A DNA stretch of 64,000 bases, taken from a candidate division FCPU426 bacterium. Lineage in GTDB: Bacteria > Oederibacteriota > Muellerivitia > Muellerivitales > Muellerivitaceae. A program made the translations under genes and the position numbers. A model generated the notes under the pieces. That model saw nothing but the letters and a program-made list of their open reading frames with translations, was not told the origin of the DNA and did no database searches. Shown here piece after piece: positions 1 through 56,251 of this stretch. The stretch lies in NCBI GenBank assembly GCA_963830915.1, contig CAWHOE010000042.1:15186-79185 (forward strand), read 5' to 3'. Each line of letters starts with the position of its first letter. The stretch's first letter is position 1.

Positions 1-1
1 T

Positions 2-1174: not shown

Positions 1175-1767
1175 CTGAACCGAAAAAGGAGGATGAACAT
1201 TCCATTCTTGACCTCATTGAGCAGGAGCCAAAGAAAAAGGGATACACCGGGAAAATCATCATTGGACTCATTGTGGCCGTGGTTGGTTTGGGTTCCACCC
1301 TCTTTTGGGGAAAAACCGCCCAAGTTGTTGATTCAAAGAAGGATGTTTCTGTGGGTAGTTCCCAAACGGTGGGGAAAGACCCCCAATACGGGGACGTAAC
1401 CGACTTCGCGGAGAAGTTCAGCATTATGGCTTTCAACATTAGTTATACGGACATCAACCATCAGGTGGACAAGGTGGCGGGTCTTATGAGTGACAACATG
1501 ATGTCCTATTACCAGGAAGCTTTTTTGGACCCCAAGTGGGTCGCCTTTCTATCGGATAACAAAGCTTATGTCTCCTACCAGCAGATCGACCGGTCGAGCG
1601 TGGAGAACACGGACGGGACCCATTACTGGGTGAAGGTTATCGGGAAGAACCTTTACAACTCGGATGCCAGGGGCCAAGGGTCACAGATTGAATTGCCTTT
1701 CCATTTAGTCGTAGTGGTCAAGAAGGACAACGGAAAACTTATTGTGACGGATTTCCAGAGGTTTTAG
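1171..1767 (+). CDS. Membrane-anchored conjugation-associated protein (single N-terminal TM + periplasmic domain; VirB8/TrbF-like layout, family not certain)
   Basis: ATGA overlap with upstream ATPase gene; TM segment IIIGLIVAVVGLGSTLFW; no catalytic motifs. Confidence 0.3.
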   Translation: MTEPKKEDEHSILDLIEQEPKKKGYTGKIIIGLIVAVVGLGSTLFWGKTAQVVDSKKDVSVGSSQTVGKDPQYGDVTDFAEKFSIMAFNISYTDINHQVDKVAGLMSDNMMSYYQEAFLDPKWVAFLSDNKAYVSYQQIDRSSVENTDGTHYWVKVIGKNLYNSDARGQGSQIELPFHLVVVVKKDNGKLIVTDFQRF

Positions 1768-1769
1768 CC

Positions 1770-3242
1770 ATGGAAGAGAATGTACTTCAAATCAACCCGG
1801 AATTAGCCAGGCGGTGCCTTCAGTCCGCCCATTTGTGCATGGAAACAAACCGGTTCAAAGAAGCCTTGAAGCTTTTTGACGAGATAATCGGAAAACACCA
1901 GCCTCAGAACGTGGAAGCTCACCTGGAATCCGCGAAGATATACGCCATATACAAACAGCCTAATTCCATCCTCAAAGTGATTAACCGGCTTCATAATTTT
2001 TCCCAGAAGACTCCGGAAAGCCTCGTTCTTCTTGCCCGCGCCCAACTTCAGATGAGCCTCTATTCCGATTGTCGGGAAAGTCTAAGGGAGATTTTTACCA
2101 TACAGAGGGATTTTCCTGAGGCAGTGGCTTTGGAGGGGGAATTGTGCATTAGGACGGCGAAATATGAAAGCGCCGTCGAGAAGTTCGAGTCCTTAAGCCT
2201 CCGTTATCCCAAAAATTACAACTATTTGACTTTCCTGGCCGTTTCCCATTTTGCCAGCGGCAAATTCCACCGGACCATCACCCTTTGTACCACCCTCATG
2301 CAAGCAGGGGTTTCAGACCCCAAAATCACCCGGCTTTATGAAATGGCGAAAACAAAAAGACGGCACGAGGCCTTGGGAAAGCTGAAAAAAGTAAAACCAC
2401 TCAAATGGCTGTTTGCCCAACTCTTCGATCCATTCCTGGAAAAGGAAATGAGGGCCGAATCGGAAAGCCAGACCACCCAGGAGGATCTTGTTCAGGAAAC
2501 CTTAGTGGACCACAGGACCGGCCTTTTGAACGATAGGGCGGCGATGCTGCAAATCCCAGCCCTTGCCGCCAGGAGAAAGAACCACTTTTACGTTGCCATG
2601 GCTGATATAGACTTTTTCAAATCCTTTAACGACGTCCATTACAACCACCAGGTCGGAAATTCCGTCTTGAAAGCCTTGGCAAAGGCGGGACAACAAATCT
2701 TCACCAAAAACAAAATTTGGCGTTACGGCGGTGAGGAAATCGTCTGGGTTCTGGACGGGTCAGAAGCCGAAGTCGTCGAAAAAGCCGAACAGTTCAGGAA
2801 GCAATGCGAGGAAAAAGTCGTGGGGGAAGCGAATGATATCAACCAAAAGGAGGACATCCGGCACTTCACGGACGGGTTGGACCATAAGAAGGACGACCCG
2901 TTCCTTATCCATTACCCGGTGACGATCAGCCAGGCCGTTGTGGAATGGGGGGAAGACGGGACAAATCTGGAAGGAATCCTAACGGCGGCGGATCACGGCC
3001 TTTACACGGCTAAGGAAGGCGGAAGGAACACGGTTGTTTTCCGGGGAACCCCCAGGTGCGTTGGGCTCAAGCCGGTCAAGTACACCCCCGAGATGCTTGG
3101 AATCCTTCACAAGTTTAGCGTCAAGAAAGGGTCCTCAAACTGGTGGGCCTATTTGGAGACTGTCGATGAGAAGGCGAAAAACGATGCTTTGGAATATGCC
3201 AGGAACACACTGGCCGACATGGAGGCGTTAAAGAAAAAATAG
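1770..3242 (+). CDS. TPR-like helical N-terminal domain fused to GGDEF (diguanylate-cyclase-like) domain, active-site variant GGEEI
   Basis: DHRTGLLN, FYVAMADIDFFKSFND, RYGGEEIVWVL, AADHGLYTAKEGGRN are GGDEF-family hallmarks. Confidence 0.75.
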   Translation: MEENVLQINPELARRCLQSAHLCMETNRFKEALKLFDEIIGKHQPQNVEAHLESAKIYAIYKQPNSILKVINRLHNFSQKTPESLVLLARAQLQMSLYSDCRESLREIFTIQRDFPEAVALEGELCIRTAKYESAVEKFESLSLRYPKNYNYLTFLAVSHFASGKFHRTITLCTTLMQAGVSDPKITRLYEMAKTKRRHEALGKLKKVKPLKWLFAQLFDPFLEKEMRAESESQTTQEDLVQETLVDHRTGLLNDRAAMLQIPALAARRKNHFYVAMADIDFFKSFNDVHYNHQVGNSVLKALAKAGQQIFTKNKIWRYGGEEIVWVLDGSEAEVVEKAEQFRKQCEEKVVGEANDINQKEDIRHFTDGLDHKKDDPFLIHYPVTISQAVVEWGEDGTNLEGILTAADHGLYTAKEGGRNTVVFRGTPRCVGLKPVKYTPEMLGILHKFSVKKGSSNWWAYLETVDEKAKNDALEYARNTLADMEALKKK

Positions 3243-3279
3243 TTTCGCATTGGTCATTAATTTCAAAAGGAGAAAGAAC

Positions 3280-3621
3280 ATGGGTTTAAAAGTCAGGATT
3301 ACCAGGATGTTTCCCTATGACGGGGAACACACGAAGGCTTTTGTTGGAGCCAAAGTCCAGATATCCGGTCGTGTTTTTGGTTACAACGAATTGACGCTCG
3401 TTAAAAAGAAAGAAGGGAATGGTTTGTTCCTGGGCCTTCCTTCTCGGCCTGGAAGGCAGGAGGGGGAGTATCACGATATTTGTTACATGGACGCGAACAC
3501 GCGAAAAGATATTGAGAAAGTCGCAATCGCCGAGTACGAGAAGAAAATCAAGGAAAGCGCACAGGTGCCCATAGGGGATAACCAAGGAGTGAGGGTAGAA
3601 CGGAGAAAAGTGAAAAGGTGA
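3280..3621 (+). CDS. spoVG: SpoVG-family nucleic-acid-binding regulator (paralog 1)
   Basis: NGLFLGLPSRPGRQEGEYHDICYMDANTRKDIE matches SpoVG core ([25 protein letters not shown]); RBS aaaggag upstream of ATG 3280. Confidence 0.7.
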   Translation: MGLKVRITRMFPYDGEHTKAFVGAKVQISGRVFGYNELTLVKKKEGNGLFLGLPSRPGRQEGEYHDICYMDANTRKDIEKVAIAEYEKKIKESAQVPIGDNQGVRVERRKVKR

Positions 3622-3652
3622 CGGGCGAAATAAAAATCAATGGAGGCAACAA

Positions 3653-3955
3653 ATGGCTTTAAAGATCAGTGTCACTAGGATGTATCCCTATGAAGGGGAG
3701 AATACCCAGGCGTTTTTCGATGTTAAGGTCGCAATATCGAGTTACGAGTTCTTCTTCAACGACCTAACTTTGGTGAAGAAGAAGGATGGCGATGGGTTAT
3801 TTGTGGGTTTCCCATCCAGGCCGGGCAAAAAGGATGGGGAGTATTTCCACTTCTGCAACGCCAACAAGAAAGCCAAGGAAGAGATCGAAAAGGCGGCTGT
3901 TGCGGAGTTTAAAAAGAAATCCAAGGCCAAGGAAACCGCCCCAGCCAAGGAATAA
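3653..3955 (+). CDS. spoVG: SpoVG-family protein (paralog 2) with Lys/Ala-rich tail
   Basis: DGLFVGFPSRPGKKDGEYFHFCNANKKAKEEIE; tandem with paralog 1. Confidence 0.7.
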   Translation: MALKISVTRMYPYEGENTQAFFDVKVAISSYEFFFNDLTLVKKKDGDGLFVGFPSRPGKKDGEYFHFCNANKKAKEEIEKAAVAEFKKKSKAKETAPAKE

Positions 3956-3977
3956 TCCAGGGGTTTTGGAGAGAAGA

Positions 3978-4241
3978 ATGGAAGACAGGAGAAGATGGGA
4001 CCGAAGAAGAAAGGCCCAGGATTGCCTGATGTCAGATAGTCAAATAGCCGATTTGGCGGGGGTTTCCAAACACACCGTTAAATTTTGGCGTCTGGCTGGG
4101 ACCATCCCTTATGTGAAGGTTGGGCGTCACCCGAGGATTTGGCTTTCGGCCTTCCAAAAAGTTTTCCATCAACCTGATCCAAGCGGACCTTGGGAATTGT
4201 CCCCTAAGTTTGGTAAAATACCAAACGGCAAGGGACATTAG
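3978..4241 (+). CDS. xis: Excisionase / AlpA-Xis family helix-turn-helix DNA-binding protein
   Basis: SQIADLAGVSKHTVKFWRLAGTIPYVKVGRHPRIW is an excisionase-type HTH; sits immediately 5' of integrase. The listed ORF 3786-4241 overlaps SpoVG in another frame, so the shorter start is preferred. Confidence 0.55.
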   Translation: MEDRRRWDRRRKAQDCLMSDSQIADLAGVSKHTVKFWRLAGTIPYVKVGRHPRIWLSAFQKVFHQPDPSGPWELSPKFGKIPNGKGH

Positions 4242-4249
4242 GAGGCAGT

Positions 4250-5320
4250 ATGAGCAAGCCTAATGTTCACGGATTGCCCCAACATCTTCGGAGAGATGAA
4301 GGGGGATATTTCCTGGATTTTTTTGTCCAGGAAGAAGGGGTTAAAAAACGTAAAAGGGTGCGTTTGGGACAGATACCTTTGCCTCAGGCAAAGAAGGTCT
4401 TGGCCCAACACATGCAAGAGATCGTTGAAAACAGTTATTTGGCGCAGGATAAGCCGAAGATCACTTTCAACGAAGCCGCCGATTCCTTTATGGATTATTC
4501 GGTGTCCAGGAAGAAAAGTTTTCATAGGGATAAGTATTACGTGGCAAACCTAAAGGCGTTTTTCGGTGACAAGCCTTTGGACAGCCTGAATCTTGACCTT
4601 GCGGAAAAATATCTGACCTGGAGAAGGAAAACCGGAAAACCCAAAGGGGAGGAGATGAAGGCGGCCACGCTCAACCGGGATATTGCCTGCTTAAAAACCA
4701 TCGTGAATAGGGCGAAGTTAAACAGGCAGATTGACAGGAATCCAATCGAGGGGATCAGGTTGTTTAAGGAAATCCCCAGGGATAGGACACTTACCCCGGA
4801 AGAGTTTAAGCAACTCTTGGAATGCTGCCCGCCCCACCTTAAATCAATGGTCGAGTTGGCTTATTACACGGCCATGAGAAAGGGTGAAATCCTAGGGCTA
4901 AGATGGGAACAAGTGGATTTCCAAAAAGGGGTTATTTTTCTTGAGGCGGAGGATACGAAAACTCAAGAAAAGCGGGAAATACCAATTGATGAGAAATTGA
5001 AGCAAATCATCAAGAAGATTCCCAAGACCTTAGGAAGCCAGTTAGTTTTCACTTACAAAGGAAAAAGGCTAACGGCTTGCAGGACCGGGTTTAAAAGCGC
5101 TTGTGAAAAGGCCGGATTGGGAAATTTCCATTTCCACGACCTTCGTCATTGTGCGATAACGAATATGCGCAAAGCGGGGGTGCCGGATTCGGTCATAATG
5201 AGTGTTAGCGGACACAAAACTAACGCGGTATTTCGGCGATATGACAAGATTGATAGGGAAGACCGAAAATTGGCGTTGGAGCGGGTCCGGGAGTTCAATG
5301 ACACCAAGTTTGGAAGCTGA
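4250..5320 (+). CDS. int: Tyrosine site-specific integrase (phage integrase family), copy 1
   Basis: C-terminal catalytic motifs HDLRHCAI, SGHKT, VFRRYDK (R-H-R-Y tetrad); N-terminal SAM-like domain. Confidence 0.9.
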   Translation: MSKPNVHGLPQHLRRDEGGYFLDFFVQEEGVKKRKRVRLGQIPLPQAKKVLAQHMQEIVENSYLAQDKPKITFNEAADSFMDYSVSRKKSFHRDKYYVANLKAFFGDKPLDSLNLDLAEKYLTWRRKTGKPKGEEMKAATLNRDIACLKTIVNRAKLNRQIDRNPIEGIRLFKEIPRDRTLTPEEFKQLLECCPPHLKSMVELAYYTAMRKGEILGLRWEQVDFQKGVIFLEAEDTKTQEKREIPIDEKLKQIIKKIPKTLGSQLVFTYKGKRLTACRTGFKSACEKAGLGNFHFHDLRHCAITNMRKAGVPDSVIMSVSGHKTNAVFRRYDKIDREDRKLALERVREFNDTKFGS

Positions 5321-5501
5321 TTGACACGGGAATGACAAACGCCCTTTTCTGGGCGGGGAAGGAGAGGGATAAAAGTTCGTTTTCCGCTTTAGCTGTAAGG
5401 GTTTTAGAAGATTTAAGAAGAGAAGATCAAGCCAACCATTGCGACCCTCAAAATCTATCGGGAGCAATCCCATGTCGGTTCAAGTCCGACCTCGGGCACC
5501 A
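5321..5501 (+). mobile_element. Integrase-distal junction: conserved int-downstream segment ending in a 30-nt tRNA 3'-end fragment (att core) ...ATGTCGGTTCAAGTCCGACCTCGGGCACCA
   Basis: T-arm GTCGG-TTCAAGT-CCGAC + acceptor 3' strand CTCGGGC + A + CCA. No matching 5' acceptor strand upstream, so fragment only. Same segment repeats at 14474-14654. Confidence 0.6.
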
Positions 5502-5550
5502 ATTTTCTTTTTTCGTTCAACAAAAAAGCTAAAAAATAATTTTTCCTGTG

Positions 5551-5579
5551 AACTTCCGAACTTGTCGGAAGTTTTTTTG
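5551..5579 (+). terminator. Rho-independent terminator
   Basis: AACTTCCG-aacttgt-CGGAAGTT followed by TTTTTT. Confidence 0.6.
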
Positions 5580-5843
5580 TTTGTGTCAATGGCCCTCCCA
5601 ATTGCGAATGACACGCATATGACAAGAATTTCGAAAGAAAAATCTATTGAGGTTATGTGTTTCGGAAAACATTTGTTTTGGGCGTGTAATTAAAAATTAT
5701 TCCCTACAAGACCATAGGGCTCAGTAGACTTTCTGTAACGTGTGCTGGTCGATTTTTTCCCTAATAAGCTTGTCAATTATGCTTGTGCGAAATTAGAATT
5801 TTTATGTTTGCATCTAAAGTTCTTTCGGGTAAAGGACAACGTA

Positions 5844-6107
5844 ATGAGAACTAAGGGATGTAGAAAACTAGGGGCCAAACTATTGACTGTTGGGTTGAAT
5901 TCTGGAAAAGCGGAGCTGTTCCAGGAAGCGGTTGTGGAAATAGTAGAGCAACTTGGTGGGGTTGAAGCCTTTGCGAAGAAAGCGAAAATGTCGGTACGGG
6001 AATTGAAAAGGGCCTTAGCTAGTCGAGAGGCCTTTCAAAGATGGGTGGATATAGCCAAGGTGGTAAAGGCTCTGAGTGAAAGCCGGATGGCATTTTATGC
6101 AAAATGA
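5844..6107 (+). CDS. Hypothetical small protein, possible HTH/antidote-like
   Basis: ORF with RBS; weak resemblance to addiction-module antidote proteins (GGVEAFAKKAKMSVRELKRAL). Confidence 0.3.
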   Translation: MRTKGCRKLGAKLLTVGLNSGKAELFQEAVVEIVEQLGGVEAFAKKAKMSVRELKRALASREAFQRWVDIAKVVKALSESRMAFYAK

Positions 6108-6156
6108 GCAAAATTTCCCGCTATTCAGGATATAACAATAATGTTATATTTAATCC

Positions 6157-6504
6157 ATGAAGGTTGATCTGTTTAGAAGTTCATCGGGGCGGTCGCCCGT
6201 TGAGGATTTTATCAGTAACCTTTCTAAAGAGGATCAGGCCCTTTTTAAGACTATCCATGACGGGATAGAGCGGGAAGGCTTGAAATATCCATACGTTATT
6301 TTCAAACCCTTAGAAGGGAAGCTCTGGGAGATCAAATTTAAGGGTTTGGACGGTTCTTACCGGATTGGCTATGTTTTGGTGACGGGGCCAAAGATGTTTT
6401 GGCTTCATGTTTTTAAAAAGAAAACGCAGAAGATATCCAGGCTGGACTTTGAGTTGGCCTGGAAGCGGATGAAGGAGATTTTGGAATATGAAAAAAACTC
6501 ATAA
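6157..6504 (+). CDS. RelE/ParE-superfamily toxin, phage Gp49-like / HigB-type
   Basis: About 115 aa, Gp49-like (DUF891) composition; 17-nt overlap with downstream XRE-HTH gene. Confidence 0.55.
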   Translation: MKVDLFRSSSGRSPVEDFISNLSKEDQALFKTIHDGIEREGLKYPYVIFKPLEGKLWEIKFKGLDGSYRIGYVLVTGPKMFWLHVFKKKTQKISRLDFELAWKRMKEILEYEKNS

Positions 6505-6802
6505 ACCCTACACGGACGGAAAAGCCTTTTTCCACAAGTTGGAAAAAGACCCTGAAATTCGTATTTTGGTAAAACAGCAAGAAGAAAAGTTTCGCCTTGC
6601 CACTGCGATCAAAAGAGCCCGAGAACATGCAGGATTAAGCCAAGTTGCTTTGGCTAAGAAAATTGGAACCAAACAAAGCGCAATTTCTCGTGCGGAAAGC
6701 GGTGTTTACCGCTCGGTGCCTTCCTTGAGTTTCCTACAGAAAATTGCGGCGGCCTGCGGGGCTCATTTAGGCATTACATTTGATTTCCGTAAGGCCAGTT
6801 AG
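6488..6802 (+). CDS. XRE-family HTH antitoxin (HigA-like)
   Basis: AREHAGLSQVALAKKIGTKQSAISRAESG is a canonical XRE helix-turn-helix; toxin-then-antitoxin order as in HigBA. Confidence 0.6.
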   Translation: MKKTHKPYTDGKAFFHKLEKDPEIRILVKQQEEKFRLATAIKRAREHAGLSQVALAKKIGTKQSAISRAESGVYRSVPSLSFLQKIAAACGAHLGITFDFRKAS

Positions 6803-6934
6803 TATTTCATCGGCCTTCTTTTCCTTGAGCCCCAAAGCCCGCAAAGAGTGTACGCCATTAGTTTGGACGATGAATAAAGTCAATGATCTTATTCATTGGA
6901 CCCCGATTTAAAAAGAGTATAATAAATTCAACCT

Positions 6935-6987
6935 AAGGGGATGGAGTTCTCCCAAAACCGCCAATTCAATTGGACGATGACTCCTAC
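6935..6987 (+). promoter_or_regulatory. Fluoride riboswitch (crcB RNA motif) aptamer
   Basis: GGGGAUGGAGUUCUCCC-AAAACCGCC-...-ACGAUGACUCCUAC matches conserved GGnGAUGGnGUUCnCC / AAACnGC / AUGAnUCCUAC blocks of the crcB motif; TATAAT-like box at about 6915-6922. Confidence 0.85.
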
Positions 6988-7030
6988 TGCATGATGAAAC
7001 ATGCGGTGGGGCCATGTACTAACAAGTCAA

Positions 7031-7056
7031 ACCCGCCGCCCGGCGGGTTTTTTTAT
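7031..7056 (+). terminator. Intrinsic terminator forming the riboswitch expression platform
   Basis: ACCCGCCGCCCGGCGGGT followed by TTTTTTT, lying between aptamer and first ORF. Confidence 0.7.
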
Positions 7057-7098
7057 TTCCCGCCCTTTCATCCTGCAAGTAAATCTTGGAGGCGGGAT

Positions 7099-8316
7099 AT
7101 GACCCACGTTTGGGCGGAAGCTACGTTGTGGATCGGGTTGGCGCTGGTCGCAGTACTCATTTCCATCTGGCTAAAAATTGCCACAGCCTTATCGGAGATT
7201 GTGGTCGGTACGGTGGCACAACTGGTAATCGGGGCCTTAGTAGGTCAGGCTTTTTTAGGCACAAGCGAAAGTTGGATTACCTTCTTAGCGGGTGCGGGCT
7301 CCATCGTTCTGACTTTCCTGGCTGGGGCCGAGCTGGACCCGGTGGTGTTCAAGGCCAAGTGGAAGGAAGCTTCGCTTTTGGGGCTGGTGGCTTTTTTCGC
7401 TCCTTTCCTGGGATGCACGGCAGCCGCCTTTTACCTGCTTCACTGGAATCCTCAGGCCTCTTGGCTGGCTGGCGTAGCCCTTTCCACCACCTCCGTGGCG
7501 GTAGTTTATGCCGTGATGCTGGAACTCGGATTAAACAAGACCGAATTCGGAAAAATCATCTTGGCCGCCTGTTTTATCAATGACCTTGCTACGGTCATCG
7601 CGCTTGGGCTTATCTTCGCGCCATTTACCCTCAAGACTCTCGTCTTCGTGGGTGTCAGCGTTCCTGTCTTTTTTATCCTTCCTTGGCTTACACCCCGGTT
7701 CTTTAAATTGTATGGTGACCGTCCCTCGGAATTGGAAACCAAATACCTCTTGTTCCTCATGTTTGGACTGGGGGCTTTGGCGACTTGGGCCGATAGCGAA
7801 GCAGTTCTTCCGGCCTACCTTATTGGAATGGTTTTGGCAGGAACAGTCGGCAAAGACCATGTCTTGGTACGCCGCTTGCGAACCGTAACTTTTGGACTGC
7901 TGACGCCGTTTTATTTCATTCGGGCAGGTTCCTTCGTATCAGTTCCCGCCCTGGTGGCCGCTCCCCTGGCTTTCGTGGTCCTGCTTTTGGCAAAGATGGG
8001 AAGTAAGTTTGTGGGTGTTTTTCCCGTCACGAAATACCAGGGTTATGCCCATAAAGAAGGAATGTACACAACCCTTCTGATGTCCACGGGGCTCACCTTT
8101 GGCACCATTTCAGCATTGTTTGGATTATCACACCACGTTATCGACCAAACCCAATATTCGTTTTTGGTGGCTACCGTTATTTTGAGTGCGGTAGTGCCGA
8201 CGCTTATCGCCAACGCCTATTTCTTACCGCACTATCTTTTGCCTAAAGTCCACAAACCTGAGGCTGAAGTCGTTCCATTGGCCCCAAATAACTCAGAAAA
8301 CGGAGGCGCTTTATGA
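7099..8316 (+). CDS. Cation:proton antiporter (CPA1/CPA2-type Na+/H+ exchanger)
   Basis: About 12 TM helices; family-typical glycine-rich helices; GGAGG RBS 6 nt upstream of ATG 7099. The listed ORF start at 6970 would run through the riboswitch terminator. Confidence 0.8.
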   Translation: MTHVWAEATLWIGLALVAVLISIWLKIATALSEIVVGTVAQLVIGALVGQAFLGTSESWITFLAGAGSIVLTFLAGAELDPVVFKAKWKEASLLGLVAFFAPFLGCTAAAFYLLHWNPQASWLAGVALSTTSVAVVYAVMLELGLNKTEFGKIILAACFINDLATVIALGLIFAPFTLKTLVFVGVSVPVFFILPWLTPRFFKLYGDRPSELETKYLLFLMFGLGALATWADSEAVLPAYLIGMVLAGTVGKDHVLVRRLRTVTFGLLTPFYFIRAGSFVSVPALVAAPLAFVVLLLAKMGSKFVGVFPVTKYQGYAHKEGMYTTLLMSTGLTFGTISALFGLSHHVIDQTQYSFLVATVILSAVVPTLIANAYFLPHYLLPKVHKPEAEVVPLAPNNSENGGAL

Positions 8317-8732
8317 TTCCCCAAAAAATCCTGGTGGCATTTGATGGTTCGATCCATTCCGAGAAATCTTTTCAATATGCCCTTGAGACGGCTAAACGTT
8401 TTCAGGCTTCCTTGTTAGTGCTTTCCGTTGCCCCGATTCCAGAATTTGACATCGCTGTAGAGATGGAATCGGTGTTGGAATCCGCCCAAGAGCATTTCGA
8501 GGAGCAATTCAAGGATCTGAAAAAAAAGGCCGAAGTGGCTGGGGTTTCCTTGACTACGGAGGTCGTGGTTGGTCATCCCGCCGAACACATCATCCGAAAA
8601 GCAATTGATGAAAAAATCGATTTGATCGTTGTGGGTCATCGGGGCAAGAGCAAGATTGGCGAATGGCTCTTAGGATCGGTAGCTAAACGCGTTTCTAGCT
8701 ATGCTCCCTGTGCGGTCACGATAGTACGATAA
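8313..8732 (+). CDS. uspA: Universal stress protein UspA family
   Basis: ILVAFDGS...IVVGHRGKSKIGEWLLGSVAKRV ATP-binding Usp motif; ATGA overlap with antiporter. Confidence 0.8.
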   Translation: MIPQKILVAFDGSIHSEKSFQYALETAKRFQASLLVLSVAPIPEFDIAVEMESVLESAQEHFEEQFKDLKKKAEVAGVSLTTEVVVGHPAEHIIRKAIDEKIDLIVVGHRGKSKIGEWLLGSVAKRVSSYAPCAVTIVR

Positions 8733-8744
8733 AGGAGGCTGATA

Positions 8745-9125
8745 GTGAGCTTAAGCCAGTTTTTTTTCATCGTCACTGGTGCGTCCATCGGGGCTTTGAG
8801 CCGTTTTGGTTTAGGTCTATGGGTGACCGCTAAATTAGGGTCGAATTTCGCTTATGGTACTTGGTTTATCAATTTGATCGGATCTTTTGTACTGGGATTA
8901 TTTTTGACCCTTCACTTGGACAGGGGATTGTTCCATCCTAATGTTCGATATTTCGTGGCTGTCGGATGGTGTGCTTCCTTTACCACTTATTCGACCTTCA
9001 GTTGGGAGACTTTCCGGTACTTCCAGGAAGGAGACTTTATGAGGGCGGGTTTGAATGTCACCTTGACCTTGGTAGGTTGTTTTTTGGCTTCATGGGGCGG
9101 TGTTGTTGTGGCAAGACTGTTGTAA
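8745..9125 (+). CDS. crcB: Fluoride ion channel CrcB/FluC
   Basis: GALSRF...GTWFINLIGSF...TTYSTFSWE motifs of Fluc family; 4 TM; GTG start with AAAGGAGG RBS. Confidence 0.85.
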   Translation: MSLSQFFFIVTGASIGALSRFGLGLWVTAKLGSNFAYGTWFINLIGSFVLGLFLTLHLDRGLFHPNVRYFVAVGWCASFTTYSTFSWETFRYFQEGDFMRAGLNVTLTLVGCFLASWGGVVVARLL

Positions 9126-9143
9126 AAAGAAGGAGGGCTCAAT

Positions 9144-9515
9144 ATGGACGTTATAGGTAAATGCAAGGTACTCCGCGTTTATGTGGACGAAGAACTGAAG
9201 TGGAAAGGCAAACTCCTTTACAAAGCTATCGTGGATCGGTTGTTGGCGGAAAAAGTGACCGCTGGTGCGACGGTCTTCAAGTGTGTAGAGGGCTTTGGGT
9301 CTTCTTCACATCTTCACACCAGTCGTATCATTGAAGTCATGGAAGAATTGCCCATGATCATCGAAATAGTGGACAAGCCTAATCGAGCCTTGAAGGCCCT
9401 GAACATTATCGAGGAAATGCTTCCAAACCATTGCTTGGTGACAGTTCATGAAACCCAGGTGCTTCATTATCACAAGGCGGACGGCAAGCATACCAAGACG
9501 AAGAAGTGGAAATAA
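9144..9515 (+). CDS. DUF190 (PII-like) protein commonly found in fluoride-riboswitch regulons
   Basis: VLRVYVDEELKWKGKLLYKAIVDRL...GATVFKCVEGFGSSSHLHTSRIIEV...PMIIEIVD matches DUF190 consensus. Confidence 0.8.
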   Translation: MDVIGKCKVLRVYVDEELKWKGKLLYKAIVDRLLAEKVTAGATVFKCVEGFGSSSHLHTSRIIEVMEELPMIIEIVDKPNRALKALNIIEEMLPNHCLVTVHETQVLHYHKADGKHTKTKKWK

Positions 9516-11224
9516 AAATGAAGGATTTTCCGGGTCAGGATGGCAATTCCACGCCAAGCCTCCCGAATGATTCTCGGACTATTTTTACTGAAGCGGGGGA
9601 TATCCTGTCATTTGCGGATTCCATCGCCCGCCGCTGGGGTATTTCAGTTCTTCTACCTCAAATCTATAATTTATCCGAATTTATAAATGAATCCGATTCC
9701 GTGGATGTGGTCTTGTTGGGAAGATTCAAGGCGGGAAAAAGTTCAATCTTGAACGCCTTATTGGGCAGGAATATTTTTCCGGTCGATGTCCTGCCGGCAA
9801 CTGCGGTCATAACCCGCGTGTCCGGCGGGTTGACTGATCACGTGAGTGTTTTGTACAGGGACGGGCACTTGGAAACGGTGCCCTTGAGTGAAATTAAAGA
9901 ATATGTCACCGAAAGGGGAAACCCCCAAAATATCAGGAAAGTCGTTAGGGTTGAAGTTCGTGCGACTGGCTTGCGATCTTTTGGCGGGATTCGGTGGGTG
10001 GATTCGCCTGGTCTCGGAAGCCTGCATGCAAGCAACACCGAAGCGACTTTGGATTGGCTCCCTAGGGTGGGAGCTGCCCTGGTGGCGGTAGCCGTGGATC
10101 AGCCTCTTGGCGAAGAAGATCGGGTTCTTCTTCGCAAACTGGAGGAACAAACCCCGTTTATTGTGATTCTTTTAACTAAGGCCGATCTAATATCTGGAGA
10201 ACAATTGGAATCGGTCGTTCAATATGTCGATTCGCAATTGACAGAGAATTTTGAGAGGGAATTGCCAGTTTTTCCCGTTTCAACCCGACCTGGGTACGAA
10301 GAATCCGTTTCAAGACTTAAAAACAGCCTCCAAGCCAGACTTGGAGGGAACCGCACCAGTGAAGAAAACAAGATTATCCTCTACAAATTAGAAGCCATCC
10401 TGAAAAACTGCCGGGGTTACCTGGGGCTTTCACTCCGAGCCGCCCGTTCCGGGACTTTATCCGGGACGAAGCTTTCCCAAGCCATTGAAGAGGAATGGGT
10501 CTTCCTTTCCACTTTAGAGGATAATTTCCATCTGGTGGTGGATCAGTCAAGTCGTCGAATCCGGGAGTCTCTTGAGAGCTGTTTCGTTTCAAAGTCGCAG
10601 GAGTTGACCCGTAAGCTCCAAAGGGAATTGAAAGAGAAACTTTTGGGTTGGCGGGGAAATTTAGCCGAGGAAAGCAGGTGGTTTCAGGAATGGCTCGATT
10701 CCCAGTTGGTTTCCGAGTTGGACCGATTGGGCCGGGAAAACCAGGATGTTTGGAAGGTCCATGTCCGGAAAGTGGAGGGCGGTCTCAACCGGGATCTCCA
10801 GGCCTTTGGGGACCGGATTTCGATCAAAATTAAGGAAGCCCTTCAATACGAATACGCCGGGACTTCCTTTGAGGCAAAGTCGACCCCTTTGGAAAAGCCA
10901 AGCACCCATCTTGACAGGGTATTTGATACGCCCTTTGAAATCATATGGTTCCTAATTCCAATGCCGGTCTTCCGGGTTCTGGTTCACAGGCATTTCATCA
11001 ATTCCTTGCCGTGGCAGGTCGAAAAACATCTTTACCGTTTATCGTCGGAATGGACGGAGAGAATCATGGATTCCATCCAGGGAATGATGGAAAAGGCCGG
11101 AAAGCATGTTCGGGACGAGTTGGAGTCCCTCGCGAACCTTTTGAAGGAAAGGATGGATGCAAGTGGAAGTATTGAGAAAGATTTGGGCCGATTAGGCGAG
11201 TTGGAGAGTTTAATCCGTTTATGA
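9506..11224 (+). CDS. Dynamin-family large GTPase (bacterial dynamin-like protein)
   Basis: G1 GRFKAGKSSILNALLG, G3 DSPG, G4 TKAD; long helical stalk; start overlaps DUF190 stop (alternative ATG at 9518). Confidence 0.75.
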   Translation: MEIKMKDFPGQDGNSTPSLPNDSRTIFTEAGDILSFADSIARRWGISVLLPQIYNLSEFINESDSVDVVLLGRFKAGKSSILNALLGRNIFPVDVLPATAVITRVSGGLTDHVSVLYRDGHLETVPLSEIKEYVTERGNPQNIRKVVRVEVRATGLRSFGGIRWVDSPGLGSLHASNTEATLDWLPRVGAALVAVAVDQPLGEEDRVLLRKLEEQTPFIVILLTKADLISGEQLESVVQYVDSQLTENFERELPVFPVSTRPGYEESVSRLKNSLQARLGGNRTSEENKIILYKLEAILKNCRGYLGLSLRAARSGTLSGTKLSQAIEEEWVFLSTLEDNFHLVVDQSSRRIRESLESCFVSKSQELTRKLQRELKEKLLGWRGNLAEESRWFQEWLDSQLVSELDRLGRENQDVWKVHVRKVEGGLNRDLQAFGDRISIKIKEALQYEYAGTSFEAKSTPLEKPSTHLDRVFDTPFEIIWFLIPMPVFRVLVHRHFINSLPWQVEKHLYRLSSEWTERIMDSIQGMMEKAGKHVRDELESLANLLKERMDASGSIEKDLGRLGELESLIRL

Positions 11225-11269
11225 GCCGGTTTTGGCATTGGGCGTTCATTACTTTTAAGGAGAAGTTAA

Positions 11270-12544
11270 ATGGCAAAGATATCCTCGGTTAAGGCAATGG
11301 AAATTTTGGACTCAAGGGGAAACCCGACAGTGAGGGTTTGGGCGGAATTGGAAAGCGGCGTGAAGGTTTCAGCTTCCGTGCCTTCCGGCGCTTCCACGGG
11401 AGAAAACGAAGCGGTAGAGCTTCGGGACGGGGACAAGAAACGCTTCGGCGGGAAAGGGGTCCTGAAAGCCGTTGAGAACGTGAACAAGGTGATTGCCTCG
11501 GCTATCAAGGGAATGGATGCGGAGCGGCAGGCGGAGTTGGACCGGCGCATGATCGAGTTGGATGGCACTCCCAACAAGGCCAAATTAGGGGCCAATGCCA
11601 TCCTGGGGGTTTCCATGGCGGTGGCGCGGGCGGCGTCGGTCGAAGCCGAAATTCCCCTTTATTCATATCTTGGAGGAACGGGAGCCGTAAGGCTTCCAGT
11701 TCCCCAGATGAACATCCTCAATGGGGGTAAGCACGCGGACAACAGCGTTGACTTCCAGGAATTCATGGCTATGCCGATAGGCGCTCCCAATTTTACAGAA
11801 GCCCTTCGGTGGGGGGCCGAGGTTTTTCATGCCTTGAGGGGTATCTTGCACCAAAAGAAATATGCGACGGGGGTGGGGGATGAGGGTGGTTTCGCGCCGA
11901 ATTTAAAAAGCAATGAGGAGGCTGTGGAGGTGATTGTCCAGGCCATCGAGGTGGCGGGCTATAAGCCGGGCAGGGATGTCGCCATAGCACTGGACCCTGC
12001 GGCCAGTTCCTTTTACGAGAAAGGGGTTTATGCACTGACCAAGTCAGGGCAAGGGAACAAATCCAGCAAAGAAATGACCGAACTTTACAAGGGATGGGTT
12101 GAGAAATTTCCCATTGTTTCCATCGAGGATGGGTTGGATGAGAACGATTGGGATGGTTTCAAGGAACATACGGCGGTCCTGGGGGGCAAGATCCAGATTG
12201 TTGGGGATGACATTTACGTTACGAACACGAAGTTTATCGCTCGTGGCATCAAAGAAAAAACCACCAATTCAGTACTGATAAAGCTCAACCAGATTGGTAC
12301 GGTCACGGAAACTATTGAGGCTATTCAACTCTGCCGCAAGGCTGGGTGGAGTTATGTCATCTCCCACAGGTCGGGGGAAACCGAGGACGCCTTCATGGCG
12401 GATTTCGCGGTCGCCATGGGGGGTGGACAGATCAAGACCGGATCGGCTTGCCGGAGTGAAAGAATCGCTAAGTACAACCGTCTCTTGGAAATAGAAGCCG
12501 AATTAGGCAAATCTGCGGTCTTCGGTAATCCATTCAAGGAATAG
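11270..12544 (+). CDS. eno: Enolase (phosphopyruvate hydratase)
   Basis: Full-length enolase signature ([31 protein letters not shown]). Confidence 0.95.
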
Positions 12545-12554
12545 GGGAAGGCCT

Positions 12555-13226
12555 TTGGAAAAACACACTCCATACTTCAAGGTTTTGGAAACCATTCAAA
12601 AAAGCCGGGATTGCGGGTTGTGTGTTCTGGAAAAGGGAGCGGTTCATTCCTATTTTGAGGCATTCCTTTACGAGAATGTGAATGACCATGGTGCCCGCGA
12701 AGCCTTGCGGGCTTCCAGGGGTTGGTGCCCGTTTCATGCACACCACTTGATTGGATTCCACGACACCCTTGCACTTTCCATCCTCTTCAAAGAACAGGCG
12801 CTCCTTGCCGGGTATTTTCTTGAGAAACAGATGGAGAAAACACACTTCTTTTCAGAATGGGTCAGCCATGCAAAGTGTCCTGCGTGTATCCAAACCATAC
12901 AGATACGACAGCATTACCTTGCTATCTTGGTGAAGGGATTAATAGAGGAAGAGGAAATGCGTTCGGCTTTTTTTGGGAATTTTCATGTCTGCCTCAATCA
13001 TTTTATGTTGGTAGTGGACGCGCTGTCGGACGATGCCTTCAAGAGGCAATTGGTGGACCGGATGTGGCAACGCCTAGCCGATTTGGCTGGACGACTGGAA
13101 CAATATTGCCAGGACTGCCAGATAAACGCGGCGGGTGAAACTTTCGATTCACCCCACCGCTATGCTTGGAAGGAAGCTGTTGAGACAGTTGCCGGGTTGA
13201 AAGACGTTTTCGAGTCGCCGTTGTAA
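12555..13226 (+). CDS. Cys-rich hypothetical protein (CGLC, WCPFH, CPAC, CLNH, CQDC motifs; metal-binding candidate)
   Basis: ORF immediately after eno, same strand; paired CxxC motifs. Confidence 0.45.
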   Translation: MEKHTPYFKVLETIQKSRDCGLCVLEKGAVHSYFEAFLYENVNDHGAREALRASRGWCPFHAHHLIGFHDTLALSILFKEQALLAGYFLEKQMEKTHFFSEWVSHAKCPACIQTIQIRQHYLAILVKGLIEEEEMRSAFFGNFHVCLNHFMLVVDALSDDAFKRQLVDRMWQRLADLAGRLEQYCQDCQINAAGETFDSPHRYAWKEAVETVAGLKDVFESPL

Positions 13227-13402
13227 TAAGACCCGTTATCGTTTTTGGTTCCCAGAACCCCATAAGTTTTTTCGGGAGATCATCAAAGGAAAAGAAAAAG
13301 TGAGGTGGGGGTGTTACTTCCTATGCCCCTAGGGAAAGTTGCTTTTGAATCTATCCTCAATCCTGGTAAAATGCCAAACAGCAAGGGACATTAGGAGGCA
13401 GT

Positions 13403-14473
13403 ATGAGCAAGCCTAATGTTCACGGACTTCCCCAACATCTTCGGAAAGATAGCGGGGGATATTTCCTGGATTTTTTTATCCAGGAGGAAGGGGTTAGTAA
13501 ACGTAAAAGAGTGCGGTTGGGACAGATTCCTTTGCCTCAGGCAAAGAAGGTCTTGGCTCAACACATGCAAGAAATCGTTGAAAACAGTTATTTGGCCCAA
13601 GAAAGGCCGAAGATCACTTTCAACGAAGCCGCTGATTCCTTTATGGCTTATTCGGTGTCCAGGAAGAAGAGTTTTCATAGGGACAAGTATTACGTGGCAA
13701 ACCTTAAGTCTTTTTTTGGTGACAAGCTTTTGGAGAGCCTGAACCTTGACCTTGCTGAAAAGTATTTAACTTGGAGAAGGAAAACCGGAAAACCCAAAGG
13801 GGAGGAAATGAAGGCGGCAACGCTCAACCGGGATATTGCCTGCTTAAAGACGATTATTAATAGGGCGAAGTTAAACAGGCAGATCGACAGGAATCCAATC
13901 GAGGGGATCAGGTTGTTTAAGGAAATCCCCAGGGATAGGACCCTAACCCCGGAGGAGTTCAAACGGCTTTTGGAATGCTGTCCTTCCCACCTGAAATCAA
14001 TGGTCGAGTTGGCTTATTACACGGCCATGAGGAAAGGTGAAATCCTAGGGATGAAATGGGATCAGGTAGATTTCCAAAAAGGGGTTATTTTTCTTGAGGC
14101 GGAGGATACGAAGACTCAGGAAAAGAGGGAAATACCGATTGATGAGAAATTGAAGGAAATCATCAAAAAGATTCCCAAGACCATAGGAAGCCCGTTTGTT
14201 TTTACCTATAAAGGGAAAAGGCTAACGGCTTGCAAGACCGGGTTCAAAAACGCTTGTCAAAAGGCTGGATTGGGAAATTTCCATTTTCACGACCTTCGCC
14301 ATTGCGCAATCACGAATATGCGCAAAGCGGGGGTGCCGGATTCGGTCATAATGAGCGTCAGCGGACACAAAACCAACGCGGTTTTCAGGCGATATGACAA
14401 GGTGGATAGGGAAGACCGAAAATTGGCGTTGGAGCGGGTCCGGGAGTTCAATGACACCAAATTCGGGACCTGA
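13403..14473 (+). CDS. int: Tyrosine site-specific integrase, copy 2 (about 89% identical to copy 1)
   Basis: Same motifs as 4250-5320; homology begins about 30 nt upstream of ATG (ggtaaaatRccaaacRgcaagggacattaggaggcagtATG). Confidence 0.9.
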   Translation: MSKPNVHGLPQHLRKDSGGYFLDFFIQEEGVSKRKRVRLGQIPLPQAKKVLAQHMQEIVENSYLAQERPKITFNEAADSFMAYSVSRKKSFHRDKYYVANLKSFFGDKLLESLNLDLAEKYLTWRRKTGKPKGEEMKAATLNRDIACLKTIINRAKLNRQIDRNPIEGIRLFKEIPRDRTLTPEEFKRLLECCPSHLKSMVELAYYTAMRKGEILGMKWDQVDFQKGVIFLEAEDTKTQEKREIPIDEKLKEIIKKIPKTIGSPFVFTYKGKRLTACKTGFKNACQKAGLGNFHFHDLRHCAITNMRKAGVPDSVIMSVSGHKTNAVFRRYDKVDREDRKLALERVREFNDTKFGT

Positions 14474-14654
14474 ATGACACGGGAATGACAAACGCCCTTT
14501 TCGGGGCGGGAAAGGAGAAGGAAAAAAGTTCGTTTTTCGCTTTAGCTGTAAGGGTTTTAGAAGCTTTAAGAAAACAAAATCAAGCAACCCATTGCGACTC
14601 TCAAAATCTATCGACCTCACGGTCATGTCGGTTCAAGTCCGACCTCGGGCACCA
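14474..14654 (+). mobile_element. Second copy of int-downstream segment ending in the same tRNA 3' fragment (att core 14625-14654)
   Basis: ATGTCGGTTCAAGTCCGACCTCGGGCACCA identical to 5472-5501; flanks diverge immediately after CACCA. Confidence 0.6.
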
Positions 14655-14684
14655 AATTTCTCCAATTTAAAATATATTATTGAA

Positions 14685-14920
14685 AATTTGGTTGTGCTTG
14701 GACGTAGTCCAAGTACACCATTTATCTTCAATTCTGTGTGGTTGTACCCAGACGACCTGCCTGCCGGAACTTTAGTGAAGGCAGGAGTCTGGGTGCACCA
14801 ATTACATTTGGTTGTGCTTGGACGTAGTCCAAGTACACCAATTTTCGTCTTTGATGAGTGGTTGTACTCAGACGACCCGCCTGGCGTAACTTTAGTGAAG
14901 GCAAGAGTCCAAGCGCGCCA
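14685..14920 (+). repeat. Two tandem copies of a 120-bp repeat, each with a GC-rich hairpin (CTTGGA-cgtag-TCCAAG) and a long nested stem-loop (ACCCAGAC-GA-CCTGCC-[14 nt]-GGCAGG-A-GTCTGGGT) ending GCACCA
   Basis: Period 120 nt (ggttgtgcttgg at 14691 and 14811), about 88% identity between units. Confidence 0.7.
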
Positions 14921-14993
14921 CGCTCCACTTGACATCGAAAAGGAAATGGATAATTATGTATATAGAAGTAAATAACTATATACGGAATTATCC

Positions 14994-15617
14994 ATGCCGC
15001 AAACAACGCCCAAACCAAAAACGTATGAGAAAGCCATCCGGGTCTTTCGAGACCGCGGAGGACTACTTTCGTCCACTGAAGCCCTGCGGGAGGGTATCCA
15101 TCCCAGGGACCTTTATGCCATGCGGGACGGTAAACTGCTGAATCAGCTAAGCCGGGGTCTTTACCGGCTTTCCGATATGCCGTCCCTGGAAAACCCAGAC
15201 ATCGTGACGGTGGCCAGACGGGTGCCGGAAGGTGTCCTTTGTCTTATTTCAGCGCTTGCCATTCATGAACTGACCACCCAAATACCCCATGAGATTTATG
15301 TGGCCCTTGAGATGGGTGCCAGGATTCCACGACTGGAGAATCCACCCATTAGGGTATTCCACTTTTCGGGCAAAGCCTTTACGGAGGGGATCGAGCAACG
15401 AAAGGTAGATGGCATAACCTACAGGGTTTATTCCCGAGAGAAAACCCTGGCGGATTGTTTCAAATACCGGAATGTCGTTGGTATGGATACGGCCCTGGAA
15501 GCGCTCCGCAACTATTGGAGGAGTAAGTGGAAGAAAACGGATGAACTCACGAAATTCTCTAAGATCTGCCGTGTGGAGAGGGTGATGGCACCCTACCTGG
15601 AGGCTATCCAAGAATGA
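14994..15617 (+). CDS. abiEi: AbiEi-family antitoxin / transcriptional regulator (type IV TA, abortive infection)
   Basis: N-terminal wHTH (LLSSTEALREGIHPRDLYAMRDGKL) typical of AbiEi; 4-nt overlap with downstream AbiEii. Confidence 0.7.
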   Translation: MPQTTPKPKTYEKAIRVFRDRGGLLSSTEALREGIHPRDLYAMRDGKLLNQLSRGLYRLSDMPSLENPDIVTVARRVPEGVLCLISALAIHELTTQIPHEIYVALEMGARIPRLENPPIRVFHFSGKAFTEGIEQRKVDGITYRVYSREKTLADCFKYRNVVGMDTALEALRNYWRSKWKKTDELTKFSKICRVERVMAPYLEAIQE

Positions 15618-16552
15618 ACAAGCCCATCGTCAATATGGCGGCCTCGGTGCATCAACGGCTTCTCAATAAGGCCCAAAAGTCGAAGCGCCCATTTAATGAG
15701 CTTCTCCACTATTACGCGATGGAGAGGTTCCTGTACCGCCTATCGCGGTCCAAGTACTCGGAAAAATTCATCCTGAAGGGGGCCCTTCTTTTTACCGCCT
15801 GGGAAGTCGCCGAATCCAGGCCGACCATGGACATCGACCTATTGGGGAAAATGAAGAATGAACCGGGGAGCATAGCCCAAGTCGTGAAGGAGATTTGTGG
15901 TCATGATGATGATCATAATGATGGTCTTCGGTTTGACCCTGCAACGGTGAAAGCGACCCGGATCGTTGAAGGGGCCGATTACCATGGAGTAAGGGTCATG
16001 TTCCTAGCCAAGCTAGCTAACGCCAGGATACCCATGCAGATCGACATAGGTTTCGGCGATCCTCATTCAGGGGGTTCGGTTTCTTTAGTGTACCCAACCC
16101 TTTTGGATCATCCAGCACCCCACCTTAAGGGTTATCGGCCAGAAAACGCCATCGCGGAGAAATTCGAGGCTATGTGCAAGCGTGGAATGACCAATACCCG
16201 GATGAAAGATTTTTTCGACGTTTGGCTTTTGGCGCGCCGGTTCGACTTTGACGGGAGCGCCCTTTCAAAAGCGATCATGGAAACCTTTGCGAGTCGCCAT
16301 GTAGAAGTACCTATGGAGCCAACGGCGTTCGGATCAGGCTTTTCCAGGGATAAGGTCAAAAACGTCCAATGGAAAGCTTTCTTGAAAAAGAGTCGGGCGC
16401 CGCATGCCCCGATGAATCTTGCCGTCGCGGTTAAGGTAATAAAAGGATTTCTAGGTCCCATCGCAAAGACTTTGGCCGAGAAAAAGAATTTCGTCGGGAA
16501 GTGGAAGGCACCAGGGCCGTGGAAAATTCCGAGCGGGCGTCAAAAACACTAA
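15614..16552 (+). CDS. abiEii: AbiEii/AbiGii-family nucleotidyltransferase toxin (DUF1814)
   Basis: N-terminus SVHQRLLNKAQKSKRPFNELLHYYAMERFLYRL and central GFGDPH...Y(R)PE block as in DUF1814 NTases. Confidence 0.75.
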   Translation: MNKPIVNMAASVHQRLLNKAQKSKRPFNELLHYYAMERFLYRLSRSKYSEKFILKGALLFTAWEVAESRPTMDIDLLGKMKNEPGSIAQVVKEICGHDDDHNDGLRFDPATVKATRIVEGADYHGVRVMFLAKLANARIPMQIDIGFGDPHSGGSVSLVYPTLLDHPAPHLKGYRPENAIAEKFEAMCKRGMTNTRMKDFFDVWLLARRFDFDGSALSKAIMETFASRHVEVPMEPTAFGSGFSRDKVKNVQWKAFLKKSRAPHAPMNLAVAVKVIKGFLGPIAKTLAEKKNFVGKWKAPGPWKIPSGRQKH

Positions 16553-16631: not shown

Positions 16632-16691
16632 ACCGCCTGCCGGAACTTAGTGAAGGCAGGAGTCTGGGTGCACCATGAATTGGTTGTGCTT
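16632..16691 (+). repeat. Third (partial) copy of the 120-bp repeat hairpin, CCGCCTGCCGGAACTTAGTGAAGGCAGGAGTCTGGGTGCACCA + TGAATTGGTTGTGCTTT
   Basis: Near-identical to 14757-14812; together with 14685-14920 brackets the AbiE cassette. Confidence 0.7.
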
Positions 16692-16933
16692 TGCCGTTGT
16701 TGATGTTTTCTATTCGTTGTTTTTATCTGTGCCTCTTGATCCTTCGCTTTTCCTCTCCCCAGCCGATCAAATTGATCCTCGATTTATTATTTTGATAGAA
16801 CGAAATTTCAAGCTAGTTCTCCTCCCTCCATTGATGTTCGATCCCTAAACACCGATATTGAATCTAGGAATAATCAGAAGGACATTCCAAAGACTTGAGA
16901 ATTTTCAGGTCGTTTCAACAAAAGGAGCAGCCA

Positions 16934-24836: not shown

Positions 24837-24866
24837 GTATAAAAAACCCATTTACCACGGAGACAC

Positions 24867-56233: not shown

Positions 56234-56251
56234 ATTTGAGCCCAGCTGTCA

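Follow-up and report, generated by a model that had tools for sequence, protein, structure and literature searches.

We analyzed a window of 64,000 nt of contig CAWHOE010000042.1 (assembly GCA_963830915.1, positions 15,186 to 79,185 of the forward strand) from a bacterium of the candidate phylum FCPU426, an uncultured lineage of peat and soil. The left part of this window is occupied by two adjoining islands, named here A and B. Each of them ends on the right in a module consisting of a leader, a tyrosine integrase gene (int1 in island A and int2 in island B), one arm of an attachment (att) site (the P arm), and a stretch derived from the 3' portion of a tRNA-Leu(CAA) gene. The coordinates of all features are collected in table 1. 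The genes to the right of 14654 looked chromosomal and included an AbiE toxin-antitoxin system, a sigma-54 activator, a superoxide dismutase, an outer-membrane protein, and others.

Self-BLAST and alignment revealed that a block at 4211-5508 recurred at 13364-14661, with 90.6% nucleotide identity over 1298 nt. A preliminary description of this DNA had placed a repeat of about 1.3 kb at about 4215-5501 and 13370-14654 and had proposed that the two modules be aligned at nucleotide level; the alignment bore the repeat out, refined its edges to 4211 and 13364, and confirmed that the flanks diverge after the CCA end. The left edge of the module was abrupt, lying 39 nt 5' of each int start codon, and the DNA outside the block was unrelated between the copies. 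The integrase identity of about 89% given in the same description did not hold. Both open reading frames (ORFs) encode 356 aa, of which 331 were identical by alignment (93%), and 89% is nearer to the nucleotide figure. The product of int2 aligned to the XerA structure 4a8e over the R...HxxR...H...Y region, and the catalytic region also aligned to the lambda Int structure.

In metagenomic data such as these, with related modules present in several strains of a single sample, the duplication might have been an artefact of assembly or a chimera in which two strains were joined at the repeat, an objection that the preliminary description had raised in the form of an assembly duplication. However, the copies differed at 9.4% of positions, with 98 substitutions between the int1 and int2 coding sequences (dS 0.39, dN/dS 0.09). 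Moreover, the A-att-B-att layout was independently assembled in two other contigs, L006 (11.3 kb collinear at 98.9%) and L007, where the junctions of the window recur. An assembly duplicate was therefore excluded, and we regard an artefact of either kind as exceedingly unlikely. By these substitution rates, int1 and int2 are two old, selected alleles, both under purifying selection.

The 30-mer ATGTCGGTTCAAGTCCGACCTCGGGCACCA occurred exactly twice in the window (5472-5501 and 14625-14654), with a chance expectation of 0. It had been described as the tRNA end shared by both copies, and the identity of these 30 nt stood, while their extent had to be revised: the tRNA-derived stretch is 55 nt per copy (5447-5501 and 14600-14654), runs from the anticodon loop CTCAAAA through CCA, and contains a swapped variable arm. 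The two 55-nt blocks matched at 47 of 55 positions, and all eight differences lay inside the 12-nt variable arm, which is V1 (GGGAGCAATCCC) in copy 1 and V2 (GACCTCACGGTC) in copy 2; each forms a 4-bp stem with different pairs. When joined to the 5' half of tRNA-Leu(CAA), GCCCGAGTGGCGAAATTGGCAGACGCAATAGA, V1, V2, and a third arm variant, V3 (GGACCTCCGGTC), each gave a valid tRNA-Leu(CAA) prediction. No complete tRNA was found in the window by ARAGORN, and an Rfam search gave no tRNA match over either att end even at E<=10. On these two negatives a complete tRNA overlapping either end was rejected, and both ends are att fragments, as had been claimed.

The distribution of the variable arms indicated where the sequences are exchanged. 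Among 34 intact tRNA-Leu(CAA) genes of the same backbone, taken from metagenomes, V1 was present in four; all four of these tRNAs, and none of the others, were followed by the left end of the island B family; V2 was the most frequent arm (12 of 34). Therefore, V1 is taken to be element-borne and V2 to be host-type, and integration appears to rewrite the variable arm of the tRNA with a compensated version. V1 always preceded the left end of island B, and it did so behind the 5' half of the tRNA, behind the int1 P arm, and behind a variant int2 P arm alike. What followed the int2 P arm, in contrast, was V1, V2, or V3 according to the downstream DNA. Because the variable arm goes with the DNA downstream of it, the exchange is placed between the last base of the P arm (5446) and the first base of the variable arm (5460). 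We infer the exact site of strand exchange to lie within the 13 nt CTCAAAATCTATC, which comprise the anticodon loop and the 3' strand of the anticodon stem. Homologous recombination at the int-att modules and left ends, in place of the integrase, might also account for most of the shuffling of such arrays. With modules 90-100% identical across 1.3 kb and about 300 bp of conserved left end, RecA would have ample substrate. All junction breakpoints, however, fell at one 13-nt segment, and P arm and variable arm reassorted exactly there. A defined exchange site is favored because homologous recombination would scatter breakpoints across the modules, and we consider shuffling by that route very unlikely.

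The rightmost tRNA-derived copy was examined together with its flank. TATTGAAATTTG and a hairpin with paired changes were common to the flank after the terminal att in the window and in contigs L015, L016, and L017. In L016 the terminal copy ends in ...GGGCC, followed directly by TAAA, without an encoded CCA, as expected for host-derived sequence. Because the flank is homologous in these contigs and the L016 copy lacks CCA, the rightmost copy is read as displaced host sequence, with native flank from 14655 onward.

Island B was also found apart from island A. A protein identical to that of int2 was encoded on 17 public contigs. In L004 (398 kb), ARAGORN predicted an intact 87-nt tRNA-Leu(CAA) at 2013-2099, directly abutting island B; this contig was 99.9% identical to the window over 5447-14661 and carried the 55-nt repeat at the far end of the island. 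The intact tRNA was joined to the left end of island B in the same manner in L027 and L064. Altogether, island B occurred in at least three left contexts, namely the 5' half of the tRNA (L004, L027, and L064), the int1 P arm (the window, L006, and L007), and the variant int2 P arm (L009). At 98.9-100% island identity it had about eight right-hand neighbors, including the native flank (the window), sister islands with the conserved left end (L004, L006, L007/L012, and L008/L010/L013), a second element family (L005 and L011), and island B itself (L009). The whole of contig L009 (9101 nt) was a circular permutation of island B, starting at the position equivalent to 10895 of the window and ending at 10842, with 52 nt missing, which would fit an excised circle or a B-B tandem. 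Since island B adjoins an intact tRNA-Leu(CAA) in three contigs, it is a unit of its own with the tRNA on its left, and the near-identity of the fluoride island across many assemblies suggests a recent spread.

These results supported the proposal, already made in the preliminary description, of two islands stacked at one tRNA site. We conclude that two distinct integrative elements, the ICE-like island A (ICE, integrative and conjugative element) and the fluoride island B, very probably stand in tandem at the tRNA-Leu(CAA) gene of this FCPU426 bacterium. A and B could also form a single composite element, in which the internal att at 5447-5501 is a fossil and the whole block is mobile, or has ceased to be mobile, as a unit. 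The A-B junction is kept in three assemblies (the window, L006, and L007), island B has no recognizable excisionase (Xis) or relaxase, and co-transfer of tandem elements is documented (PMC5704250). Nevertheless, island B lies directly at the tRNA without island A in L004, L027, and L064, its many right-hand neighbors and the circularly permuted contig are at odds with a fixed block, and int2 is intact and under purifying selection; a single composite element thus seems quite improbable to us.

For two distinct elements in tandem, the following course of events is proposed. In each element, attP would hold its own version of the tRNA segment between the anticodon loop and CCA, with a terminator and the P' arm behind it. 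The integrase would exchange strands inside the 13-nt segment, and the element would substitute its own copy for the 3' 55 nt of the tRNA. The displaced original 3' part would stay at the far end, beside int. A second element could then enter the same site via the rebuilt tRNA or via the far-end att of the first element, and the resulting order would be tRNA(5')-[A...int1]-att-[B...int2]-att-native flank. The empty site would read tRNA(V2)-AATTTCTCCAATTTAAAATAT.

Several observations weigh against the reading of two independently integrated elements. An empty site with the right flank of the window was found neither via the AbiEi look-up nor among 51 tRNA loci nor by BLAST of the flank. The tRNA and the left boundary of island A for the present contig were not reached via L001 or L074, two contigs with related sequence. 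The preliminary description had expected the intact tRNA to the left; such a gene was seen beside island B in L004, L027, and L064, while for island A in the present contig we infer its position to the left from the arrangement of the array. Neither Pfam nor PHROG revealed a recognizable excisionase in island B, and the case for its independent mobility comes from comparative context only, with no Xis, relaxase, or origin of transfer (oriT) identified. Some of the diversity of contexts could also arise from homologous recombination or assembly joins via the shared 1.3-kb module and the left ends of about 300 bp. Finally, the motif AWTGACAM, treated below as a putative integrase site, occurred 13 times in the window against 7.9 expected, which is not significant, and only its clustering and conservation are suggestive.

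Table 1. Features of islands A and B and of the adjoining flank (positions are those of the window)
Feature	Position	Strand	Evidence or remarks
Island A, right-hand part, ICE-like	1-5501	+	Left end and intact tRNA outside the window
VirB4/TraG P-loop ATPase, island A	8-1174	+	Protein family match
Probable excisionase (Xis/RDF; RDF, recombination directionality factor), island A	4026-4241 (maximal ORF 3786-4241)	+	Directly 5' of int1
int-att module, copy 1	4211-5501	+	Leader, int1, P arm, tRNA-derived block; 1.29 kb, 90.6% identical to 13364-14654
int1, tyrosine integrase, 356 aa	4250-5320	+	Pfam Phage_integrase 2.9e-30, SAM-like N-terminal domain; PHROG_1 integrase 4e-70
P arm, copy 1	5321-5446	+	113/126 identical to 14474-14599
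Hybrid att between islands A and B, tRNA-Leu(CAA) 3' portion with island-type arm V1 (5460-5471)	5447-5501	+	Identical to positions 33-87 of the intact L004 tRNA
Island B, 9153-bp fluoride-resistance integrative island	5502-14654	+	Bounded by two 55-nt tRNA-derived repeats; 98.9-100% identity in L004-L011
P' arm, island B	5502-5640	+	Terminator and putative arm-type sites
87-aa conserved left-end protein, possibly a DNA-binding regulator	5844-6107	+	Weak PHROG repressor match, E 1.2e-3
Toxin-antitoxin pair, island B	Gp49/HigB-like toxin 6157-6504; HTH_3 antitoxin 6488-6802	+	Pfam Gp49 1.7e-15, HTH_3 1.2e-14
Fluoride riboswitch	6928-7060 (aptamer 6928-6993; terminator-type expression platform 7029-7050 and T run)	+	Rfam RF01734, terminator scan
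Fluoride-response gene cluster	7099-13226	+	Pfam and NCBIfam matches; co-directional, short gaps
Na+/H+ exchanger (CPA2), first gene of the cluster	Within 7099-13226, 5' of Usp	+	Pfam/NCBIfam
Usp	8313-8732	+	Pfam/NCBIfam
CrcB	8745-9125	+	Pfam/NCBIfam
DUF190	9144-9515	+	Pfam/NCBIfam
Dynamin-like GTPase, 568-572 aa	9506-11224	+	Pfam/NCBIfam
Enolase	11270-12544	+	Pfam/NCBIfam
DUF6062	12555-13226	+	Pfam/NCBIfam
int-att module, copy 2	13364-14654	+	Leader, int2, P arm, tRNA-derived block; alignment with copy 1
int2, tyrosine integrase, 356 aa	13403-14473	+	Pfam Phage_integrase (PF00589) 1.5e-30; PHROG_1
Terminal tRNA-Leu(CAA) 3' portion with host-type arm V2 (14613-14624), right end of the array	14600-14654	+	V2 is the commonest arm; followed by native flank
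Native chromosomal flank (B')	14655-14930	+	Two 120-nt structured repeats at 14686-14909; homologous flank in L015, L016, L017

The cargo of island B included a cluster of fluoride-response genes. The riboswitch aptamer upstream of them scored 49 bits with RF01734, against a gathering score of 34. CrcB, enolase, Usp, the Na+/H+ exchanger, and DUF190 are customary members of such clusters. To our knowledge, neither the dynamin-like GTPase nor DUF6062 is an established fluoride-response gene. The 87-aa gene at the left end was also called at the equivalent place in sister islands; its product matched no Pfam family and had no similarity to the Xis of island A. None of the 12 proteins of island B belonged to a relaxase or mobilization family in Pfam, NCBIfam, and PHROG scans, and an oriT would not be recognizable by these tools. 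A prophage or phage satellite was rejected: neither Pfam nor PHROGs revealed capsid, terminase, primase, or other phage-type structural or replication genes, the only candidates being the integrase, helix-turn-helix proteins, and the Gp49-type toxin, and phage collections gave no match. A plasmid origin was likewise rejected, with no match in PLSDB. Island B is not a cis-mobilizable element (CIME), since int2 is intact, and no mobilization function that would make it an integrative and mobilizable element (IME) was recognized. The most fitting name for it is integrative genomic island, possibly one that relies on island A to be excised or transferred. Its excision may proceed with the Xis of island A acting in trans or by co-excision with island A, or may need no RDF.

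Island A is an ICE-like element with type IV secretion genes, because a VirB4/TraG protein is encoded in the window and TrbL and an 857-aa VirB4-like protein are encoded in L001, a contig 97% identical to island A that extends 6.9 kb more to the left. In the window it also carries a TPR-GGDEF protein, two SpoVG-like proteins, an HTH_17/excisionase-type protein, and int1. A related element of more than 21 kb was present in L074; no tRNA was found inside this contig, and no relaxase, coupling protein, or oriT was seen in about 20 kb of it. The probable excisionase, in its 70-aa form, scored 27.1 bits with Pfam HTH_17 against a cut-off of 27, whereas TIGR01764 ("excise") gave 23.2 bits, under its cut-off, and PHROG excisionase families gave weak matches. 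The preliminary description had seen an excisionase 5' of int in copy 1 only and had called the duplicated module xis-less. The first part is right, as an HTH_17-type gene precedes int1 and the DUF6062 gene precedes int2; the term xis-less holds in the sense that no excisionase was recognized, with the 87-aa left-end protein still a candidate.

The att arms contained candidate binding sites for the integrase. Three copies of AWTGACAM straddled the int stop codon in each P arm (5297, 5320, and 5331 in copy 1), and the P' arm of island B had an intrinsic terminator at 5550-5574 with a T run, found by terminator scan, and further copies at 5583 (minus strand), 5607, and 5619. Nine of the 13 matches in the window were inside att arms. 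These motifs are putative arm-type sites for Int, and the terminator in the P' arm would end transcription of the rebuilt tRNA. The left ends of seven islands had about 125 nt after CCA in common, in which the motifs GTGTCAAT, AATGACAC, and TATGACAA were invariant.

The same int-att module closed islands with different cargo on contigs labelled FCPU426. Integrases 92-96% identical to that of int2 were encoded on contigs of metagenome-assembled genomes labelled candidate division FCPU426 and on one labelled uncultured proteobacterium. The island at 251-11252 of L015 contained nifEN-like, nifB-like, homocitrate synthase, and modABC-like molybdate-transport genes, and that at 675-11255 of L016 encoded Nramp, a peroxidase-family (catalase-peroxidase-like) protein, modABC-like proteins, and an FAD oxidoreductase; the integrases of both had 95-96% amino acid identity to the int2 protein. 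The 55-nt tRNA-derived block pattern was present in L015 and L017. In these related cargo islands no excisionase gene was recognizable 5' of int; only island A has one. In L016, a 250-nt relic of the 5' end of int (4453-4704, 93% identical to 13362-13614 of the window) was fused in frame to the start of a molybdate-binding-protein ORF (4493-5512) and looks like a scar left by a previous deletion or junction between islands. Farther to the right on the contig that contains the L016 region lies another, different element, L075.

Since int2 is co-directional with the riboswitch-controlled cluster and lies 176 nt 3' of it, with no predicted terminator in the gap, fluoride could raise the expression of int2. 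As a speculative extension, the fluoride island and its sisters (nif/molybdate, KatG/molybdate, and sigma-54-regulator) might form a family of small "cargo cassettes", each with an int-att module copied from a co-resident conjugative element and with no excisionase of its own. These cassettes would make up an exchangeable array at tRNA-Leu(CAA), excised and transferred by the conjugative element, and fluoride could raise both integrase expression and the mobility of the island. We consider this scheme unlikely.

Other elements were met at or near tRNA genes. A second, unrelated element family also abutted tRNA-Leu(CAA); it had the conserved left-end motif ...CTTCAAAATCATTGTYCC... and was present in L028, L037, L042, L051, L052, L060, L062, L069, and others, as well as in L005 from 9208 and in L011 from 4128. 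It can follow the att of island B, so arrays can mix two element families. Group II introns occurred in L007 (9521-11293), L012 (2005-3300), and L016 (20828-20964), with Rfam D1-D4 matches in L007 and L016 and reverse transcriptase/maturase ORFs in L007 and L012. On the latter two contigs, the left end of the sister island ceased to resemble other left ends immediately beyond the conserved TATGACA motif, at a point still upstream of the intron. In L020 (10001-11339), an integrase with 49% identity lay directly 5' of an intact tRNA-Lys(TTT) gene on the same strand, a layout unlike that of the tRNA-Leu family.

In the native flank, two tandem 120-nt units at 14686-14909 matched at 87% (Tandem Repeats Finder), had two strong hairpins each, and gave a fold z-score of -8.5; they had no Rfam match, and a partial third copy was found at 16635-16700. 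It is the first of these hairpins that recurs, with paired changes, in the homologous flank of L015, L016, and L017. This repeat could be a small RNA or an element resembling repetitive extragenic palindromic (REP) sequences downstream of tRNA-Leu. An AbiEi/AbiEii type IV toxin-antitoxin pair (14994-16552) stands in the native flank, directly after the island array. Farther to the right, dispersed intergenic repeats of about 75-120 nt with 74-80% identity occurred in both orientations (24842-24956, 27588-27683, 30561-30657, 56247-56336, and 62172-62399) and may be similar to REP sequences or to miniature inverted-repeat transposable elements. Two pairs of adjacent paralogous segments were also observed, at 32509-33275 and 33685-34451 (71% nucleotide identity) and at 51748-52086 and 52359-52697 (66%).

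We found no earlier description of mobile elements with their attachment site in the candidate phylum FCPU426. The arrangement itself is well known and our understanding of islands at tRNA sites is unchanged, but the example is clean. What makes the case of interest is mainly the small, mobile island for fluoride resistance, together with the insight into a family of modular islands within an uncultured phylum. It is also a clear natural example of one int-att module spreading very different adaptive cargo, for fluoride resistance, nitrogenase cofactor and molybdate uptake, catalase, and conjugation. With attP and attB defined, their sequences might be used for integration or for tracking such islands in metagenomes.

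In the sublocation scheme of Williams 2002, there are said to be tyrosine integrases that exchange in the anticodon loop of a tRNA and resupply its 3' part. The present integrases resemble this class in that the identical sequence begins in the anticodon loop and reaches the tRNA 3' end and a functional tRNA would be restored by the element, whereas here the tRNA copy brought by the element differs in its variable arm, which is compensated.

Mobile elements are well documented to accrete in tandem at tRNA or tmRNA genes (PMC5704250, PMC3146451), and tandems with the same specificity can excise separately or jointly and be mobilized in cis (PMC5704250). Streptococcal examples are ICESt1/ICESt3-CIME and the composite of a decayed ICE with IME_Sag2603_tRNAlys (PMC5704250). 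As in those streptococcal tRNA arrays, neighbors of the same specificity stand at a tRNA 3' end in the order attL-element1-hybrid att-element2-attR (PMC5704250). In contrast to those tandems, which usually have distantly related integrases (PMC5704250), both integrases are intact here and 93% identical. Moreover, unlike the streptococcal partners, island B is no CIME, as it has an integrase, and no demonstrated IME, and its host belongs to an uncultured candidate phylum known here from sequence alone. The ssrA islands of Dehalococcoides are similar in forming a tandem array 3' of one small-RNA gene, each island bounded by a direct repeat of the gene 3' end, with a common integration module, differing adaptive cargo, and an insertion point inferred from repeat alignments (PMC3146451). 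They differ in having a serine recombinase beside attL and a 20-bp tmRNA repeat, in place of a tyrosine integrase at the far end and a 55-nt repeat from the anticodon loop (PMC3146451). NBU1, which resides in a tRNA-Leu gene of Bacteroides and needs CTnDOT in order to excise, sets a precedent for small elements at tRNA-Leu that rely on a conjugative helper (PMC5704250). Genomic islands with a resistance operon under a fluoride riboswitch are not new either: GI3 of Enterobacter cloacae FRM confers fluoride resistance and, like island B, has a fluoride-riboswitch operon with crcB, eno, and uspA (PMC5533749). GI3 includes ppaC and gpmA, while island B has instead a Na+/H+ exchanger, DUF190, a dynamin-like GTPase, and DUF6062, and the host phyla differ (PMC5533749). 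Compared with GI3 (PMC5533749), island B is compact (9.2 kb), encodes an integrase of its own, has defined att sites, and was found in many contexts.

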